IMG/VR virus record: IMGVR_UViG_3300028392_002123
Length of the DNA stretch: 64,000 bases
From: a virus
Taxonomy: Duplodnaviria > Caudoviricetes
Reading direction: 5' to 3' (one strand)
Notes under the pieces: model-generated
Seen by the model: the letters and a program-made list of their open reading frames with translations, nothing else
Database searches by the model: none
Told to the model about the DNA's origin: nothing
Translations under genes and position numbers: made by a program
Shown: piece by piece, positions 38,155-44,675 of the stretch
How the letters are laid out: every line of letters starts with the position of its first letter
Position numbering within the stretch: the stretch's first letter is position 1

Positions 38155-38231
38155 TGGCGCGGTGGACGGGACTCGAACCCGCGACCCTCGGCGTGACAGG
38201 CCGATACTCTAACCAACTGAGCTACCACCGC
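38155..38231 (-). tRNA. tRNA-Asp (GTC)
   Basis: Cloverleaf; TCGGC-CT GTC AC-GCCGA; CCA. Confidence 0.94.
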
Positions 38232-38859
38232 TAATCTTCTTAACTCTAACTAAATCCAGACTGGGATTACACACTGGAATTCTAGCGTATTTAATATAAA
38301 AATTCTTTAATAATTCTAACTCTATGTCCTTGCACAAACTAGGATGCATGGGCAAGTATGCTTGATAACATTTATCAATTAACTTAGCATCAAAGTTTTC
38401 TTTAAACGCAGTACCACAACCATAGGGACTAAGTCTATTATTTCTAATAGTTCCTTTAAAGTCTGTGCGTCTGCCTAACATACAATTACGTGTTACTGCT
38501 CTACTTTCACCAATGTAAATAACCTGTTCAGATAAAAAATCTGCAGGTCCCGGGGGAACAGTATCTTCAAATAGTCCATATATATAACAACCTGGATGTG
38601 CTTTGTCAAAGCCCCAGGTCCTGGACCAAGGTTCGTCTATGTGATGCCAAGCTGTAAAATTTTTAAAGTCTGGCCTTACAGTAGTTTTTAGTTGTGTGAC
38701 AAAATATTCAACGCCACTTAACTCAGCACACTTCCGTAGGCTATAAGCCAATTGTTCTATGTTAGAATCTTTGAATATATCATAGAGTTGGTCTTCGGTT
38801 AATCCGTGATTACCTGATCCCATTCTAATATTTTTAGCAAGTATCTGTGCGGCGTTCAT
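38209..38859 (-). CDS. GIY-YIG-like nuclease-fold protein
   Basis: GCYIYGL...VIYIGES...R...E motifs; 3' end overlaps tRNA-Asp. Confidence 0.45.
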   Translation of the reverse strand: MNAAQILAKNIRMGSGNHGLTEDQLYDIFKDSNIEQLAYSLRKCAELSGVEYFVTQLKTTVRPDFKNFTAWHHIDEPWSRTWGFDKAHPGCYIYGLFEDTVPPGPADFLSEQVIYIGESRAVTRNCMLGRRTDFKGTIRNNRLSPYGCGTAFKENFDAKLIDKCYQAYLPMHPSLCKDIELELLKNFYIKYARIPVCNPSLDLVRVKKISGGSSVG

Positions 38860-39026: not shown

Positions 39027-39043
39027 AATGATATTATTTTACA

Positions 39044-39694
39044 TTAAATGTTTGACTGTGTCAACTGATATTTTGCAATTAGATTATCAATTAATTCTTT
39101 TTTTGGTTCAGTGTGAAATTGATACCAGATGTGTAATCTTCTATGACCTTTGGGAACATGGATATCATGCTGTATCGCTGTTTGTATCAGCACCGGAGTA
39201 CTGGTAATAGGTTGATGTACAGTCAATGATTCTGTGTCGTTTCTAAATTTCCAAAGACATTCCGGAGTTGTTTCCACAGCAATGTGTACACGAAAGGGAG
39301 TGTGATTATCCACGTGCCAGTTAAGATTTACATTAGCATGATCTTTGTATAATAAACTTGATCTTGCTCTAGGCGGCCCTATTTCTAAGTATTCTGAAAA
39401 TAACTTTCCCAGCTGTTGAATATAAGATCCCTGCAATGATCTGGGCCAATGCACTAAATCTCTGTCATCTTCTCCTGTGGCCAGTATATGTCTACTATGA
39501 GGATTAAATTTACGTTGTCCACTGTATTTTGTAAAACTGAAATTGTCGTTGTTAAGATCTTCTAGTTGACAAGTTAGACCGCAGTCTATGCCAATCTGTG
39601 GTTTAACTATGTTATAAATCTCTTGTCGAACTTTATCAACATCAACATTAATATCTACTAAGGGGATATAAAATTGATCTAATAGTGTATGCAT
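39044..39694 (-). CDS. 2OG-Fe(II) oxygenase (Asp/Asn hydroxylase-like)
   Basis: WHVD, RVHIAVET, QHDI, RRLHIWY; TATAAATA-N5-ATG. Confidence 0.68.
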   Translation of the reverse strand: MHTLLDQFYIPLVDINVDVDKVRQEIYNIVKPQIGIDCGLTCQLEDLNNDNFSFTKYSGQRKFNPHSRHILATGEDDRDLVHWPRSLQGSYIQQLGKLFSEYLEIGPPRARSSLLYKDHANVNLNWHVDNHTPFRVHIAVETTPECLWKFRNDTESLTVHQPITSTPVLIQTAIQHDIHVPKGHRRLHIWYQFHTEPKKELIDNLIAKYQLTQSNI

Positions 39695-40771: not shown

Positions 40772-40786
40772 GCCCCGAAGGGCTTA
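40769..40786. terminator. Hairpin between convergent genes
   Basis: TAAGCCC-CGAA-GGGCTTA. Confidence 0.55.
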
Positions 40787-41386
40787 CATGGTAGGTCCGT
40801 TGCCATTGCGAAAGCCTACACTTCCACCTTCTGCTTCAATACGTGCAATAACGTCTTCAAATAAGATAGGTGCAAAGTCAGTTTGCTCCACGCAGACACA
40901 GTGATAGCGCACATCGGGTTCGTCGCTGTATAAGATTTCTCCTGTACGTGCGTCAACACCACGAGCCTTCTTCACGCGATTGGCATGAGTGTGTCCGTGA
41001 ATGTTAACACCAAAGCGACCCATTGAGTCCGAGTGTAACGGAATATGGCTTAAGATCATTCCGTTCATAACATGGTATGCTCGTAATTCTCTAAAGTACT
41101 GCCTATACTCGTCATCACGGAAGATGTCGTGGTTACCGCGGATTAAGACCTTGTCGCCGTTTAAGCGACTCATGATGCTTAAAGCCTTGCGGTTAATAAC
41201 AACGTCACCTAAGTGGTAGACCTTATCAGTGGGCTTTACCCGTTCGTTCCACGCCTTAACCATAGCTTCGTCCATTTCCTCAGGACTATCCCATGGGCGT
41301 AACTTAGTAACACCATCGTTACGTGTGAAGCGGCAGACGCCGGTATGTCCGAAATGCGTGTCGCTAACTAAAAATACACTAGGCAT
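40784..41386 (-). CDS. Calcineurin-like metallophosphoesterase
   Basis: SDTHFGH, LGDV, GNHD, SHIP, HGHTH. Confidence 0.9.
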   Translation of the reverse strand: MPSVFLVSDTHFGHTGVCRFTRNDGVTKLRPWDSPEEMDEAMVKAWNERVKPTDKVYHLGDVVINRKALSIMSRLNGDKVLIRGNHDIFRDDEYRQYFRELRAYHVMNGMILSHIPLHSDSMGRFGVNIHGHTHANRVKKARGVDARTGEILYSDEPDVRYHCVCVEQTDFAPILFEDVIARIEAEGGSVGFRNGNGPTM

Positions 41387-41408: not shown

Positions 41409-41437
41409 ATTATACACTATTATGACTTTGATGTCAA
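41409..41437 (-). promoter_or_regulatory. sigma70 promoter
   Basis: TTGACA-17-TATAAT. Confidence 0.75.
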
Positions 41438-41441
41438 TTAT

Positions 41442-41517
41442 TGGTACCAAGAGTCGGAATCGAACCGACCACACACGGATTTTCAATCCGTTGCTCTACC
41501 TACTGAGCTATCTTGGC
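41442..41517 (-). tRNA. tRNA-Phe (GAA)
   Basis: Cloverleaf; ACGGA-TT GAA AA-TCCGT; CCA. Confidence 0.94.
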
Positions 41518-41526
41518 ATTATTGAA

Positions 41527-41738
41527 TTTGTAAGTAGTTGCTCCATCGTTATAGCAACCATTCACCCATGTATATAAAGCCGGCTGGGACTCGGTACGTC
41601 ACTTGGGATACTAGTCCAGTTAGCAACCAATCTGCGGAGATCTTCCGATCTCCCGGGAGTTGAACCCGTCCCCTTTTACTATTTTGGTAGTTCGAACTTA
41701 CCTAGATAGCGTGACATTCTCTTGCTGACACTTACAAA
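41527..41738 (-). ncRNA. Candidate ~210-nt structured RNA between tRNA-Ser and tRNA-Phe
   Basis: TTTGTAAGT/ACTTACAAA closing stem; internal GGG-TTCAACT-CCC T-arm-like element; GGAGATC/GATCTCC hairpin. Confidence 0.55.
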
Positions 41739-41741
41739 ACT

Positions 41742-41831
41742 TGGCGGAAGCGGTGAGATTCGAACTCACGGCCCACTTTCGTGAACGACGGTTTTCAAGA
41801 CCGTTGCCATAGACCACTCGGCCACACTTCC
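41742..41831 (-). tRNA. tRNA-Ser (TGA)
   Basis: Class II cloverleaf; ACGGT-CT TGA AA-ACCGT; CCA. Confidence 0.93.
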
Positions 41832-41836
41832 TGATT

Positions 41837-41910
41837 TGGCGTCCCGCCAGGGACTCGAACCCCGACCAACGGTTTTGGAGACCGTTATGCTGCCATTACA
41901 CCAGCGAGAC
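41837..41910 (-). tRNA. tRNA-Trp (CCA)
   Basis: Cloverleaf; ACGGT-CT CCA AA-ACCGT; CCA. Confidence 0.92.
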
Positions 41911-41916
41911 ATTAAT

Positions 41917-42008
41917 TGGTACCCCCGGCGGGAATCGAACCCACATGAACCAATTATCTGTTGCTTACGGGATATAAATCCGCCGTTTTACCGTTAAACT
42001 ACAGGGGC
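41917..42008 (-). tRNA. Atypical tRNA, apparent anticodon TAT (Ile-like), long variable region
   Basis: Acceptor GCCCCTG/CGGGGGT, D arm GTTT/AAAC, T arm GTGGG-TTCGATT-CCCGC, CCA; irregular anticodon arm GCGGATTTATATCCCGT. Confidence 0.7.
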
Positions 42009-42013
42009 ATATT

Positions 42014-42090
42014 TGGTGCCGCAACCTGGACTCGAACCAGGGACCTTTCGCTTATCAAGCGAATGCTCTAACCAACTGAGCTATTGAGGC
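42014..42090 (-). tRNA. tRNA-Ile (GAT)
   Basis: Cloverleaf; TTCGC-TT GAT AA-GCGAA; CCA. Confidence 0.92.
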
Positions 42091-42099
42091 AATATAAAC

Positions 42100-42175
42100 T
42101 GGGGTGAAGGATGGGACTCGAACCCACAACAACTGGAATCACAATCCAGGGCTCTACCATTGAGCTACCGACACC
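42100..42175 (-). tRNA. tRNA-His (GTG)
   Basis: G-1/C73; CTGGA-TT GTG AT-TCCAG; two acceptor mismatches; CCA. Confidence 0.88.
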
Positions 42176-42192
42176 AAAAGATAAATAATTTT

Positions 42193-42768
42193 ATGTACTG
42201 TTTCCACTTAAACTTAGATCTAGCACCTTTTAAATTTAAATTTAACTATAAAGATTACTTGCCTCCATTTGGAAAAACAAGTAATGTAGTTAAATTTAAT
42301 CTCGTCGACATAAATCCAGAACTTGTAGAATTATTAGCCGAGCGCAATATAAAAATTGGCTGGGCTGAAATGTTTATTAAACATCCTCATATGACAGTAA
42401 ATGAACAAATACACATCGATGAATTTCGAGGAGACTTTGTTAAATTAAATTGGGTCTGGGGAGGAACCGGAAGCACTATGAGATGGTTCCGAGAACTTGA
42501 TCCTGCAAAAAAATTAACACCATCAAGCAATCAAATCAACAGTCCTTATCTAGGATTCAGTATCAATGATGTTGTTCTAGAACATGAAGAAGCACTTAGT
42601 GGACCGTGTATAATACAAGTTGGTGTTCCACATAATGTTGTCATGGGCACTGATATGAGATGGGCATTGAGTTTTGTATTATTGGATATCACTGGTAATA
42701 CCAGTGCTCGACGAAGATTATCAATGCCACAAGCTTTGGAAAACCTAAGCAATCTACGCAAAGCATAA
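42193..42768 (+). CDS. 2OG-Fe(II) oxygenase/cupin-like protein
   Basis: HID...PHNV...RWALSFVL; start trimmed to TAAATA-N5-ATG at 42193. Confidence 0.65.
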   Translation: MYCFHLNLDLAPFKFKFNYKDYLPPFGKTSNVVKFNLVDINPELVELLAERNIKIGWAEMFIKHPHMTVNEQIHIDEFRGDFVKLNWVWGGTGSTMRWFRELDPAKKLTPSSNQINSPYLGFSINDVVLEHEEALSGPCIIQVGVPHNVVMGTDMRWALSFVLLDITGNTSARRRLSMPQALENLSNLRKA

Positions 42769-42955
42769 ACTTCCGTATAATTAACGATATGCTTTTTCTT
42801 ATTAAGTAATTTAATAAGGAAAAACACTATGCGTAGAAAAAAATGGATTGACAGAGTATCAGATATCTATCAATCAACAAAGCGAATTAATAGAAGAAGA
42901 AACTAAAAGTATACGAGCTCAAGAAAGAAAATCTTTCCTAGCTAGAACGTTCAAA

Positions 42956-43030
42956 TGGTGGTGATAGTTGGATTTGAACCAACGACCGGCCGCGTATGAA
43001 GCGGATGCACTACCACTGTGCTATATCACC
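42956..43030 (-). tRNA. tRNA-Met (CAT), elongator-type (Ile2 not excluded)
   Basis: Cloverleaf; CCGC-TT CAT AC-GCGG; paired 1:72; CCA. Confidence 0.85.
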
Positions 43031-43034
43031 ATAA

Positions 43035-43183
43035 GGCGGGAGCCCAACTATCCGGGTGGCCCGGCCTTGCTGGATTGTCTCGAATAGTCAAGTCAACTAA
43101 ACTACAACCATACTATAGTGTCACCGCAGTTAACCCTACTGTGGCTAGGTTGGCAAGGACTCAAAACTATCGTCTATCCCAAA
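43035..43183 (-). ncRNA. Candidate ~150-nt structured RNA between tRNA-Arg and tRNA-Met
   Basis: CCTTGC/GCAAGG long-range helix; CCGGG/CCCGG hairpin; no credible ORF. Confidence 0.45.
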
Positions 43184-43185
43184 AC

Positions 43186-43263
43186 TGGCACCCATGGAAG
43201 GATTCGAACCTCCGACTCCCTGCTTCGTAGGCAAGTACTCTAGTCCAACTGAGTTACACGGGT
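43186..43263 (-). tRNA. tRNA-Arg (ACG)
   Basis: Cloverleaf; CTTGC-CT ACG AA-GCAGG; CCA. Confidence 0.92.
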
Positions 43264-43266
43264 ATA

Positions 43267-43342
43267 TGGTAGGACGTACTGGATTCGAACCAGTGACCAA
43301 TGGATTAAAAGTCCACTGCTCTACCAACTGAGCTAACGTCCC
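43267..43342 (-). tRNA. tRNA-Lys (TTT)
   Basis: Cloverleaf; GTGGA-CT TTT AA-TCCAT; CCA. Confidence 0.93.
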
Positions 43343-43347
43343 GTAAC

Positions 43348-43421
43348 TGGCACCCGGAGTAAGAATCGAACTTACAATAGCAGAGTCAAAGTCTGTTGTG
43401 TTACCACTACACTATCCGGGA
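43348..43421 (-). tRNA. tRNA-Gln (TTG)
   Basis: Cloverleaf; CAGA-CT TTG AC-TCTG; CCA. Confidence 0.9.
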
Positions 43422-43428
43422 ATTAATA

Positions 43429-43504
43429 TGGTACTCCGTGGGGGAATCGAACCCCTCGTTTGCGCCTTGAAAGGGCACCGTCCTAACCGTTAGACGAACG
43501 GAGC
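43429..43504 (-). tRNA. tRNA-Glu (TTC), second copy
   Basis: Cloverleaf; GTGCC-CT TTC AA-GGCGC; CCA. Confidence 0.9.
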
Positions 43505-43509
43505 AAAAT

Positions 43510-43595
43510 TGGTGGAGGCGGATGGATTCGAACCACCGCGCTTTTTACAGAACAGATTTACAGTCTGCCGCCTTCAGCCACTCGGCCACACCTCC
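43510..43595 (-). tRNA. tRNA-Tyr (GTA)
   Basis: Class II cloverleaf; GCAGA-CT GTA AA-TCTGT; CCA. Confidence 0.93.
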
Positions 43596-43597
43596 AT

Positions 43598-43790
43598 AAC
43601 ACACTCTTTCGAATGTGTGTATTAAAGCACACTAGCCGCTCTGTTTCTTCTGTATGCCTACAGATTGTATCCATTCGTCTAATATGCTTTAATACGCTGT
43701 AATTTTTCATCTCACAAAAGAGACTCTATCCTACAGGCCGCCCGTTTCCCCATGTTTTAAGTGCGGGGTGAGCCCTCGTTGCTCCACACT
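43598..43790 (-). ncRNA. Candidate structured RNA(s) between attenuator terminator and first tRNA
   Basis: 17-bp stem GTATTAAAGCATATTAG/CTAGTGTGCTTTAATAC with CTGTA/TACAG inner hairpin; CCCC/GGGG hairpin with possible pseudoknot. Confidence 0.5.
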
Positions 43791-43792
43791 AT

Positions 43793-43829
43793 AAAAACAA
43801 AAACCCTGGAGTTTTTAGTTCCAGGGTCC
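43793..43829 (-). terminator. Intrinsic terminator of tRNA-array leader (attenuator)
   Basis: ACCCTGGA-ACTAAAAAC-TCCAGGGT followed by TTTTGTTTTT. Confidence 0.85.
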
Positions 43830-43860
43830 TTGAAGTTTTGAAATGTATTAAGTTGTTTAC

Positions 43861-43971
43861 TTAACCATCCCATCCCTCCCGGACCCTGATATTAATCTCG
43901 CGGTCAAAGCAAAGCATTGACCAATATATGGAATGCTGTGAGCTAAGATTAAAAAGTTTGTTGTTCATCAT
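43861..43971 (-). CDS. Putative 36-aa leader peptide MMNNKLFNLSSQHSIYWSMLCFDREINIRVREGWDG
   Basis: Manual translation; ATG 7 nt after the -10 box; contains the antiterminator arm CAGGGTCC. Confidence 0.65.
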   Translation of the reverse strand: MMNNKLFNLSSQHSIYWSMLCFDREINIRVREGWDG

Positions 43972-43978
43972 AGTGTGT

Positions 43979-44007
43979 ATTATACAGTTATTTATCTTTT
44001 ATGTCAA
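43979..44007 (-). promoter_or_regulatory. Consensus sigma70 promoter of main tRNA array
   Basis: TTGACA-17-TATAAT. Confidence 0.85.
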
Positions 44008-44030: not shown

Positions 44031-44675
44031 TTACTTGACAAAATTTACTTCTATTTTTTGTTTTGGAAAAGTGATGTAGTTGAAGTTTTCATTGACTTGA
44101 TGCTGTGTGCGTTGTTTGTTTGGATCAGGAAATCCAATACCCAGTAACAATAGCACTCCGCCTTCAGTGCCCAGAACTTTTTGTACTTTTGGGCCGTCGA
44201 AACAACCGCAGTAGCCAGTGGAATAGCCTAGCAAGTTCGCTGTAAGGTTCAAGTATCCAGATGCAATGCCCAAGGAGACTTCTCTGTCATTGTACAAAGC
44301 GTCGGGCACTCTTTCGTTGTCTTTTTCTAACCATGCCATTTGATCATTGCGATGTACACCTTCGTGTAAAACTGGTGTGACCATTTGATCTTCAAAAACC
44401 ACTAACAAATTTGCCAATGTTTGTGTGTTTGTTTCGACAATATTTTTTTCCCTGTTAACTGTAAATCCATTGGTTAACCCATGTATAGTTTCAATGATAT
44501 TTCTGTTAGTTATGAAATGACACTTATAGTAAGCTACGTTTTGTTTACTGGGACATTGTGTAACTGCTGATACTAGTGTATCTAGATCTGCTTGCGGAAT
44601 AGACTTAGTCAAATCCCAATTACGTTGGCAATGTTGACTTTTTTCAATTATGGTTTCGATGTCATTGTTTGTCAT
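44031..44675 (-). CDS. Nitroreductase family protein
   Basis: CQRNWD, CPSKQN, ANLLGYSTGYCGCF, LLLGIGF. Confidence 0.8.
   Translation of the reverse strand: MTNNDIETIIEKSQHCQRNWDLTKSIPQADLDTLVSAVTQCPSKQNVAYYKCHFITNRNIIETIHGLTNGFTVNREKNIVETNTQTLANLLVVFEDQMVTPVLHEGVHRNDQMAWLEKDNERVPDALYNDREVSLGIASGYLNLTANLLGYSTGYCGCFDGPKVQKVLGTEGGVLLLLGIGFPDPNKQRTQHQVNENFNYITFPKQKIEVNFVK

Follow-up and report, generated by a model that had tools for sequence, protein, structure and literature searches.

A transcription attenuator whose outcome would be set by the position of a translating ribosome probably stands at the head of a transfer RNA (tRNA) operon in an uncultured phage. The DNA concerned, a stretch of 64,000 nucleotides (nt) from a virus of the Caudoviricetes (Duplodnaviria; IMG/VR record IMGVR_UViG_3300028392_002123), is referred to as the window, and all positions are counted from its first letter. 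On its minus strand, a compact module of approximately 215 nt (43,793 to 44,007) comprises a promoter, a short leader open reading frame (ORF) and two competing RNA hairpins, and it precedes a block of 12 tRNA genes. Judged from the sequence, the tRNAs would be transcribed when translation of the leader lags. The module is composed of the following parts:

43979 to 44007, minus strand: sigma-70 promoter, TTGACA (44007-44002) and TATAAT (43984-43979) with a spacing of 17 nt, matching the consensus at 12/12 positions
43861 to 43971, minus strand: leader ORF of 36 codons plus TAA (ATG at 43971, stop at 43863-43861), from the sequence and a hidden Markov model (HMM) of its family
43881 to 43888, minus strand: 5' arm of the antiterminator (helix P1), CAGGGTCC, in codons 28-31, a perfect complement of GGACCCTG
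43822 to 43829, minus strand: shared strand, GGACCCTG, pairing either with the 5' arm or (within 43820-43827) with the 3' arm of the terminator
43822 to 43888, minus strand: whole antiterminator hairpin from folding, consisting of P1, an inner GGAG:CUUC helix and an apical helix
43793 to 43827, minus strand: intrinsic terminator, an 8-bp stem of ACCCTGGA (43827-43820) and TCCAGGGT (43810-43803) with a 9-nt loop, followed by TTTTGTTTTT (T-tract 43802-43793)

The promoter, ORF, arms and terminator were all recovered on the minus strand at the places given in the original prediction, an earlier note made from the letters of this DNA. A consensus scan for promoters and terminators had missed the terminator because its loop limit was 8 nt and the loop here has 9. 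With the -10 hexamer ending 7 nt before the ATG, the leader messenger RNA (mRNA) would be leaderless or nearly so. The leader transcript of the window, 188 nt in length, folds with an energy of -55.6 kcal/mol (z = -5.1 relative to shuffled sequences), and its best fold contains the antiterminator, not the terminator; the energies of the two hairpins are -29.7 and -12.3 kcal/mol, respectively. When 190 nt were searched for the best upstream duplex of the terminator's 5' arm region, exactly the proposed arm was returned, at -17.5 kcal/mol, compared with a mean of -8.5 kcal/mol for shuffled controls, none of which (0/300) was as good. The alternative helix and the terminator have one strand in common and cannot form together, and the TAA (43863-43861) is located near the top of the apical helix, on its 5' side. 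Upstream of the 5' arm, no complement to this arm was found; small hairpins occur within the ORF, at 43902-43922 in the window and as a GGC...GCC hairpin in relatives. A run of four G3 tracts (43865-43886, minus strand), a possible G-quadruplex, begins in the 5' arm; it is confined to a subfamily with a ...REGWDG/D tail (e.g., loci L300, L316, L336, L376, L304 and L487), and as most members are without it, it is no general part of the switch.

The same module recurs widely. Comparison of the intergenic region with loci retrieved through the neighboring nitroreductase gene gave the first relatives, a dozen distant phages whose homology runs from the 3' half of the ORF through the terminator and 170 nt further. 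Two pattern scans of IMG/VR, which required only the P1 arms and whose matches were then filtered for a downstream hairpin and T-tract, provided at least 115 distinct instances besides the window among the matches listed, and module counts out of 116 refer to the window plus these 115. Further members were obtained by synteny, a peptide HMM and searches with a conserved RNA element lying after the terminator (element B), such that by all routes the module is present in at least approximately 125 distinct contigs of uncultured aquatic phages. Although tRNA sequence was part of none of the search patterns, tRNA genes on the same strand follow in 101 of the 116 modules, starting 160-1200 nt past the terminator and usually forming long arrays. 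Of the 15 modules without an array, 14 are on contigs that end less than 560 nt downstream; the exception is L326, where 1553 nt are available and no tRNA is present. The attenuator architecture foreseen ahead of the tRNA genes is thus real and conserved. ARAGORN and Rfam agreed on the tRNAs themselves, 12 as far as 41442 and four further genes beyond this block down to 38155, as first described. The products that follow the terminator in the window are:

43610 to 43782, minus strand: element B, a conserved structured RNA and the first product after the terminator, found with nhmmer and blastn at 81% identity to distant loci
41442 to 43595, minus strand: block of 12 tRNA genes (Tyr, Glu, Gln, Lys, Arg, Met, His, Ile, Ile, Trp, Ser, Phe), called by ARAGORN and Rfam

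Pairs were counted on an alignment of 110 distinct sequences. The antiterminator helix P1 has a standard pair in 98.8% of cells, with three pairs changed on both sides, and sliding one arm by a single column lowered the value to 58-66%; for the terminator, a standard pair was found in 99.7% of cells, four pairs were changed on both sides, and the same slide gave 61-75%. Both helices of the pair predicted to be mutually exclusive are hence maintained. RNAalifold on MAFFT alignments recovered the terminator only, because the variable inner region misaligns the 5' arm, and P1 was consequently examined with the named structure and with folds of each sequence. In these, P1 was present in the minimum-energy fold of 107 of the 110 sequences. 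Divergent modules located upstream of element B carry other arms, viz. GTCCAGG:CCTGGAC in L437, CTCCGGG:CCCGGAG in L448 and a 12-bp helix in L439, while L454, L449, L484 and L465 have versions rich in U:A pairs. Fourteen modules were tested for the upstream segment that pairs best with the terminator's 5' strand; in each of them, this segment ends 0-24 nt short of the stop codon of a 36-60-codon ORF (p <= 0.05 relative to shuffles in every case). As the divergent modules keep this layout with different arms, the architecture is conserved beyond sequence, and the expectation that homologous loci would retain the alternative pairing was borne out. The 5' arm is also conserved as nucleotides rather than as codons: its core GGGTCC is read in three frames among the 110 sequences, as Gly-Ser in 62, as Arg/Gly-Val in 45 (including the window) and in the third frame in 3, which argues that it is kept as RNA. 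That the arrangement arose by chance and serves no function is vanishingly improbable. Taken alone, one 8-nt complement in 200 nt would be no great rarity; however, none of the 300 shuffles reached the duplex energy, and on comparative grounds chance is refuted, since the module recurs in more than 100 phages, its helices covary and its link to tRNA arrays is near-absolute.

The geometry of the module is equally constant. The stop codon is UAA in 106 of the 110 sequences, located 8-21 nt after the 5' arm (mostly 14-18, with a mode of 15) and 18-31 nt before the shared strand. The folded hairpin has three parts, namely P1, an inner helix (GGAG:CUYC) and an apical helix that varies; the stop is found either at the top of its 5' strand or in its apical loop. 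Members do not share the sequence of the inner part, which is nonetheless always structured: the antiterminator has a family mean of -23.7 kcal/mol, compared with -15.7 kcal/mol when the inner part alone was shuffled (z = -3.5), and all 110 sequences fall below their own shuffle mean. The terminator hairpin has a family mean of -13.5 kcal/mol. As the antiterminator is the more stable of the two and is transcribed first, the default without a ribosome should be read-through. A crude thermodynamic model, in which a footprint reaching 15 nt upstream and 12 nt downstream of the first A-site base was masked and 55 sequences were refolded, behaves accordingly as a switch set by ribosome position. 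The terminator was in the best fold of 18% of the sequences with no ribosome (the antiterminator prevailing in 82%) and of 22-29% when the A site was still at least 12 codons away from the stop; the value rose to 58% at 11 codons, reached 96% from 10 to 2 codons, and was 93% at 1 codon and 75% at the stop itself. In this model, the switch point coincides with a conserved D-R-T-P-E segment of the leader peptide, 11-15 codons before the stop.

In the proposed mechanism, a short translated ORF would stand at the start of a transcript made from a strong sigma-70 promoter, and the final third of this ORF would supply the 5' strand of a long, stable antiterminator whose 3' strand doubles as the 5' strand of the terminator. 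With the ribosome absent, or more than about 11 codons short of the stop, the antiterminator would already have formed when RNA polymerase reached the U-tract, no terminator would arise, and the polymerase would continue into element B and the 12 tRNA genes. A ribosome keeping pace would instead unzip or cover the 5' strand of the hairpin through the last codons to the UAA at its top; the shared strand would then join the 3' arm of the terminator and transcription would stop. Output of tRNA would be expected to increase when leader translation is slow or failing and to decrease when it is fast, the net effect being a negative feedback of translation speed on tRNA supply. The direction of the logic put forward at the outset also fits the energies and the geometry, a lagging or absent ribosome giving read-through. 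We infer from the sequence that the ORF is translated, that the host polymerase terminates at the hairpin and U-tract, and that a physiological signal acts through the leader. A hypothetical signal, suggested in the original prediction, is the depletion of host tRNAs or their cleavage by defense nucleases.

The placement of promoters is consistent with this proposal in most of the family. A promoter matching at least 10 of the 12 consensus positions lies within 200 nt of the ATG in all 111 relatives that have 200 nt of upstream sequence, and in 67 of these 111 the match is perfect. The -10 hexamer is just 6-10 nt from the ATG in 16 relatives, as it is in the window, which suggests leaderless mRNAs in these cases; a purine-rich, Shine-Dalgarno-like stretch is found in 89 of the 111. 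Between the terminator and the first tRNA gene, 67 of the 101 relatives with arrays have no promoter above 9/12, and the interval up to tRNA-Tyr in the window holds no promoter-like site above 8/12. Since there is no better promoter in between, transcription of the array would have to pass the terminator in these 67 and in the window. Two more promoters are present inside the tRNA region of the window, one with the full consensus (41409-41437, minus strand, 12/12) after tRNA-Phe and ahead of a phosphoesterase gene (40784-41386), the other (39036-39064, minus strand, 11/12) immediately before tRNA-Glu (39026), and because of them the attenuator probably gates the first 12 tRNAs only. In relatives (L084:4649-4900, L123:2577-2870 and L089:1170-1380), the leader ORF is preceded by consensus promoters in tandem, two or three in number, with a short hairpin after each.

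An ORF spans the 5' arm in every arm-based match, with a length of 36-94 codons and mostly of 41-50, and this ATG-started frame is universal despite a GC content of only approximately 39%. Most of the leader ORFs encode one family of peptides, 42-50 residues long, with the conserved blocks AKQAGFMPSYWSAI and NDRTPE. A Trp is the sole invariant residue after Met1; a Gly, an Asp and an Arg are nearly so, and D-R-T-P-E is near-invariant. The window encodes an N-terminally short member (E = 3.4e-4 against the family HMM), with YWSM, DREI and a tail like the ...RVREGWDG of L300, L336 and L376. At the conserved Gly (GGC in 91, GGT in 12) and Arg (CGC in 69, CGT in 46), variation is mainly at the wobble position, and several DRTPE codons are almost invariant at all three positions, which may reflect a constraint at the level of RNA. 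Searches of Pfam, PHROGs and the ESM Atlas revealed no relative of the peptide. Thus, of the expectation that related phages would share the module with covarying helices and variable peptides, the module and the covariation were confirmed, whereas the peptide turned out to be conserved. The count of 17 amino-acid types in the window peptide, with Ala, Pro and Thr missing, was likewise correct; the meaning attached to it did not hold, since the AKQAG and DRTPE of relatives carry Ala, Thr and Pro. The leader ORFs have no run of regulatory codons. Matching of leader codons to the array was considered and rejected as negligible: the fraction of leader residues served by the phage's own array was 0.588, compared with 0.578 in shuffled leader-array pairings. 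Similarly, DRTPE is present in 16 leaders for which the first 3 kb of the array has neither tRNA-Thr nor tRNA-Pro. Sensing of Trp specifically was rejected because tRNA-Trp, despite the invariance of the leader Trp, is found in just 67% of arrays and is not enriched.

A number of observations weigh against the attenuator and have to be set beside the above. Most of the 110 aligned sequences were retrieved by patterns that fixed the arm sequences, and hence the main A:U/G:C covariation at the outer P1 pair was partly imposed by retrieval. In an unconstrained subset of 18 sequences obtained by synteny, peptide HMM or element B, with arms free to vary, the outer pair is A:U in 9 and G:C in 6, and C:G is replaced by U:A at the next-to-last P1 pair (L402 and L442) and at the last pair (L499). 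A strong promoter follows the terminator in 27 of the 101 relatives and would bypass it. Once the ribosome is at the stop codon, a standard footprint falls just short of the 5' arm, the caveat voiced originally, and the model places the terminator in 75% of best folds there, not in the 96% seen earlier in the ORF. No conserved pause or "protector" hairpin that would synchronize ribosome and polymerase was found in the module, and the loop of 9 nt is longer than is usual in efficient intrinsic terminators. The promoters were scored against a sigma-70 consensus of the Escherichia coli type. Four lake RNA runs contain pieces of relatives' attenuators and of element B, present as assembled metatranscriptome contigs without ends or strand that cannot show 3' ends. 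A conserved peptide, with its invariant Trp and DRTPE, is unusual compared with classical leaders, and the product could have a function of its own. Finally, the overall wobble signal is weak, with summed entropies of 50, 46 and 51 at codon positions 1, 2 and 3; as the three positions vary about equally, most of the leader peptide is under weak constraint.

In an alternative reading, possible if unlikely, the module is an autonomous small gene of promoter, ORF and terminator, resembling a phage "moron." Its product would be the peptide, acting for instance on tRNA metabolism or host defense, while the terminator would leak for the tRNAs and the P1-P3 hairpin would stabilize the mRNA or tune translation of the ORF. 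Conservation at the amino-acid level with synonymous variation at the conserved Gly and Arg is what such a gene would show, about a quarter of the relatives have a separate promoter past the terminator, and a second small ORF follows the terminator in many of them, so that small proteins belong to the locus. On the other hand, a small gene leaves unexplained both the nucleotide conservation of the 5' arm in three frames and its constant pairing with the terminator's own 5' strand, even where the arms differ. Moreover, a hairpin that is 10 kcal/mol more stable than the terminator, and that forms first, would disable a plain terminator, and the peptide has no relative in the databases named above. 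The module could be an attenuator and still encode a functional peptide.

The peptide, the least-explained feature of the module, could also be the sensor itself. An unlikely reading holds that it is a nascent-chain arrest peptide, with the invariant Trp in the exit tunnel and D-R-T-P-E at the peptidyl-transferase center. Because DRTPE lies at the decision boundary of the model, it would be the last place where a paused ribosome still permits the antiterminator, and pausing there, set by a metabolite, the state of tRNA or the activity of a host defense, would gate the tRNA array and element B. If true, a sensor like TnaC or SecM would control tRNA supply in a large clade of uncultured phages. 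The fixed spacing typical of TnaC was looked for and rejected, the distance from Trp to Pro ranging from 9 to 14 residues across the peptides, and membership is therefore not claimed.

The RNA and the small ORF that adjoin the module bear on a further alternative. Element B is found in 83 of the 116 modules and, in L424 and L426, without any leader module. Its RNAalifold fold, based on 81 sequences, has many covarying pairs and a long hairpin with a variable insert, and with approximately 81% identity it is more conserved than the neighboring protein. Neither the leader nor element B matched an Rfam 15 family, be it with the window or with six homologous loci as the query. The second conserved small ORF (ORF2), encoding 49-59 amino acids, lies between terminator and element B in many relatives (e.g., L089:1608-1760, L098:5758-5904, L123:3118-3276 and L446:7261-7437) but not in the window; its sequences fall into at least two types, READF..QHTLT..KREIA and DYxKLNERIVEQAY, and neither Pfam, PHROG nor the ESM Atlas contained a match.

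In this alternative, the switch is real and set by a factor acting in trans rather than by the ribosome; the hairpin or the conserved 9-nt loop of the terminator would be bound by a small RNA, a tRNA or a protein, for instance one from the host or the product of ORF2. The loop, AYUAAAMAC, and the nucleotides encoding DRTPE are conserved beyond the needs of pairing and coding, and both element B and ORF2 adjoin the module. This alternative is nonetheless considered quite improbable: ORF2 is missing from the window and other members, no T-box or other Rfam match was obtained, and all members have an intact ORF that ends at the hairpin's top, which a model with a factor alone does not require. 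A site of RNA processing, for example by RNase III, that would separate the leader mRNA from the tRNA precursor and overlap the terminator only incidentally, is very unlikely. Precursors of phage tRNAs are heavily processed, and a long, irregular hairpin of about 20 pairs does stand between mRNA and tRNA precursor. However, the overlap with the terminator strand persists in divergent members of differing arm sequence and register, and processing alone has no need of a stop codon at the top of the hairpin. The small-gene, factor-set and processing alternatives partly overlap with the favored attenuator.

The ribosome-dependent attenuator proposed here resembles the amino-acid leaders of enterobacteria (trpL, hisL, leuL, thrL, pheL and ilv), which likewise have a promoter-proximal short ORF, a terminator ahead of the regulated genes and an antiterminator sharing one strand of the terminator; in these, too, the position of the ribosome decides, with an upstream stall causing read-through and arrival at the end causing termination. 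Unlike them, the phage module has no run of regulatory codons, its stop codon is inside the antiterminator hairpin, at the top, rather than ahead of region 2, its peptide is conserved, and what it would regulate, in a phage, is a set of tRNAs together with a structured RNA. Nor was a 1:2 protector or pause hairpin found, and for this reason an untranslated phage leader should read through and not terminate. Attenuators with upstream ORFs that respond to translation stress are known for the antibiotic-resistance genes vmlR (PMC9226507), mef/msr(D) (PMC4335068) and lmrC (PMC8546547). There, as proposed for the phage, a slowed ribosome on a short leader ORF leads to an antiterminator and to expression of a gene that restores translation; these systems, however, control bacterial ABCF or efflux genes in response to particular drugs at particular peptide motifs, whereas the output of the phage module is tRNA. 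T-box riboswitches also link the status of tRNA to expression of translation-related genes through a terminator/antiterminator switch, but they bind uncharged tRNA directly and have no ORF, and no T-box or other cis-regulatory Rfam match at E <= 1 was detected in the window region or the six homologous loci. With the pyrBI and pyrE attenuation of E. coli, the outcome is set by how closely the ribosome follows RNA polymerase through the leader ORF; the sign is opposite, as a close ribosome blocks the terminator there and should promote it in the phage module.

Full-text literature searches yielded no description of an attenuator before phage tRNA genes, nor of control of the expression of phage tRNA genes, and control of tRNA genes by leader-ORF attenuation has probably not been published yet. 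The purpose of phage tRNA genes is debated, with codon compensation, replacement of degraded host tRNAs and evasion of tRNA-cleaving defenses having been suggested (e.g., PMC10264068). If the attenuator functions as proposed, phages would regulate tRNA supply by feedback, and not by gene dosage alone. The module marks the start of a tRNA operon in more than 100 uncultured phages, and it is accompanied by element B and a conserved small peptide.

The window is part of a large uncultured freshwater (lake) phage. The DNA runs that contain the stretch are freshwater metagenomes, and three contigs, one from a lake metagenome and two measuring 0.2-1 Mb, encode a protein identical to one of the window; the identical-protein look-up also returned a 3.5-kb contig, 99.97% identical, which added no information. 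The window carries 29 tRNA genes in its 64 kb. Directly upstream of the leader is the nitroreductase-like gene (44031-44675), with relatives of no more than 61% identity in IMG/VR and metagenomes. A collection of isolate phages, searched at the DNA and protein levels, returned matches to tRNA-Tyr and one distant nitroreductase only; neither the module nor element B was found in the cultured phages of this collection. One complete module with element B and the start of a tRNA array (L504:5700-6223) is on a 6.2-kb contig binned with a metagenome-assembled genome of Polynucleobacter; this contig may be mis-binned phage DNA or, as a weak hint, may point to Polynucleobacter as a host.

Other features of the tRNA region were noted in passing. 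Two ORFs, each encoding exactly 216 amino acids, lie between tRNA genes (38209-38859 and 39044-39694, both on the minus strand), neither with a Pfam or PHROG match. Among relatives, ARAGORN called a transfer-messenger RNA at L073:3552-3973, and L098:1-199 has a weak, partial Rfam match to one, below the gathering score. The tRNA-Ile(UAU) identified by ARAGORN is unusually long, at 92-94 nt, both in the window (41917-42008, minus strand) and in L001:1958-2051, L010:9600-9693 and L021:9555-9646, and as it recurs in distant relatives it is a conserved oddity of this group of phages.

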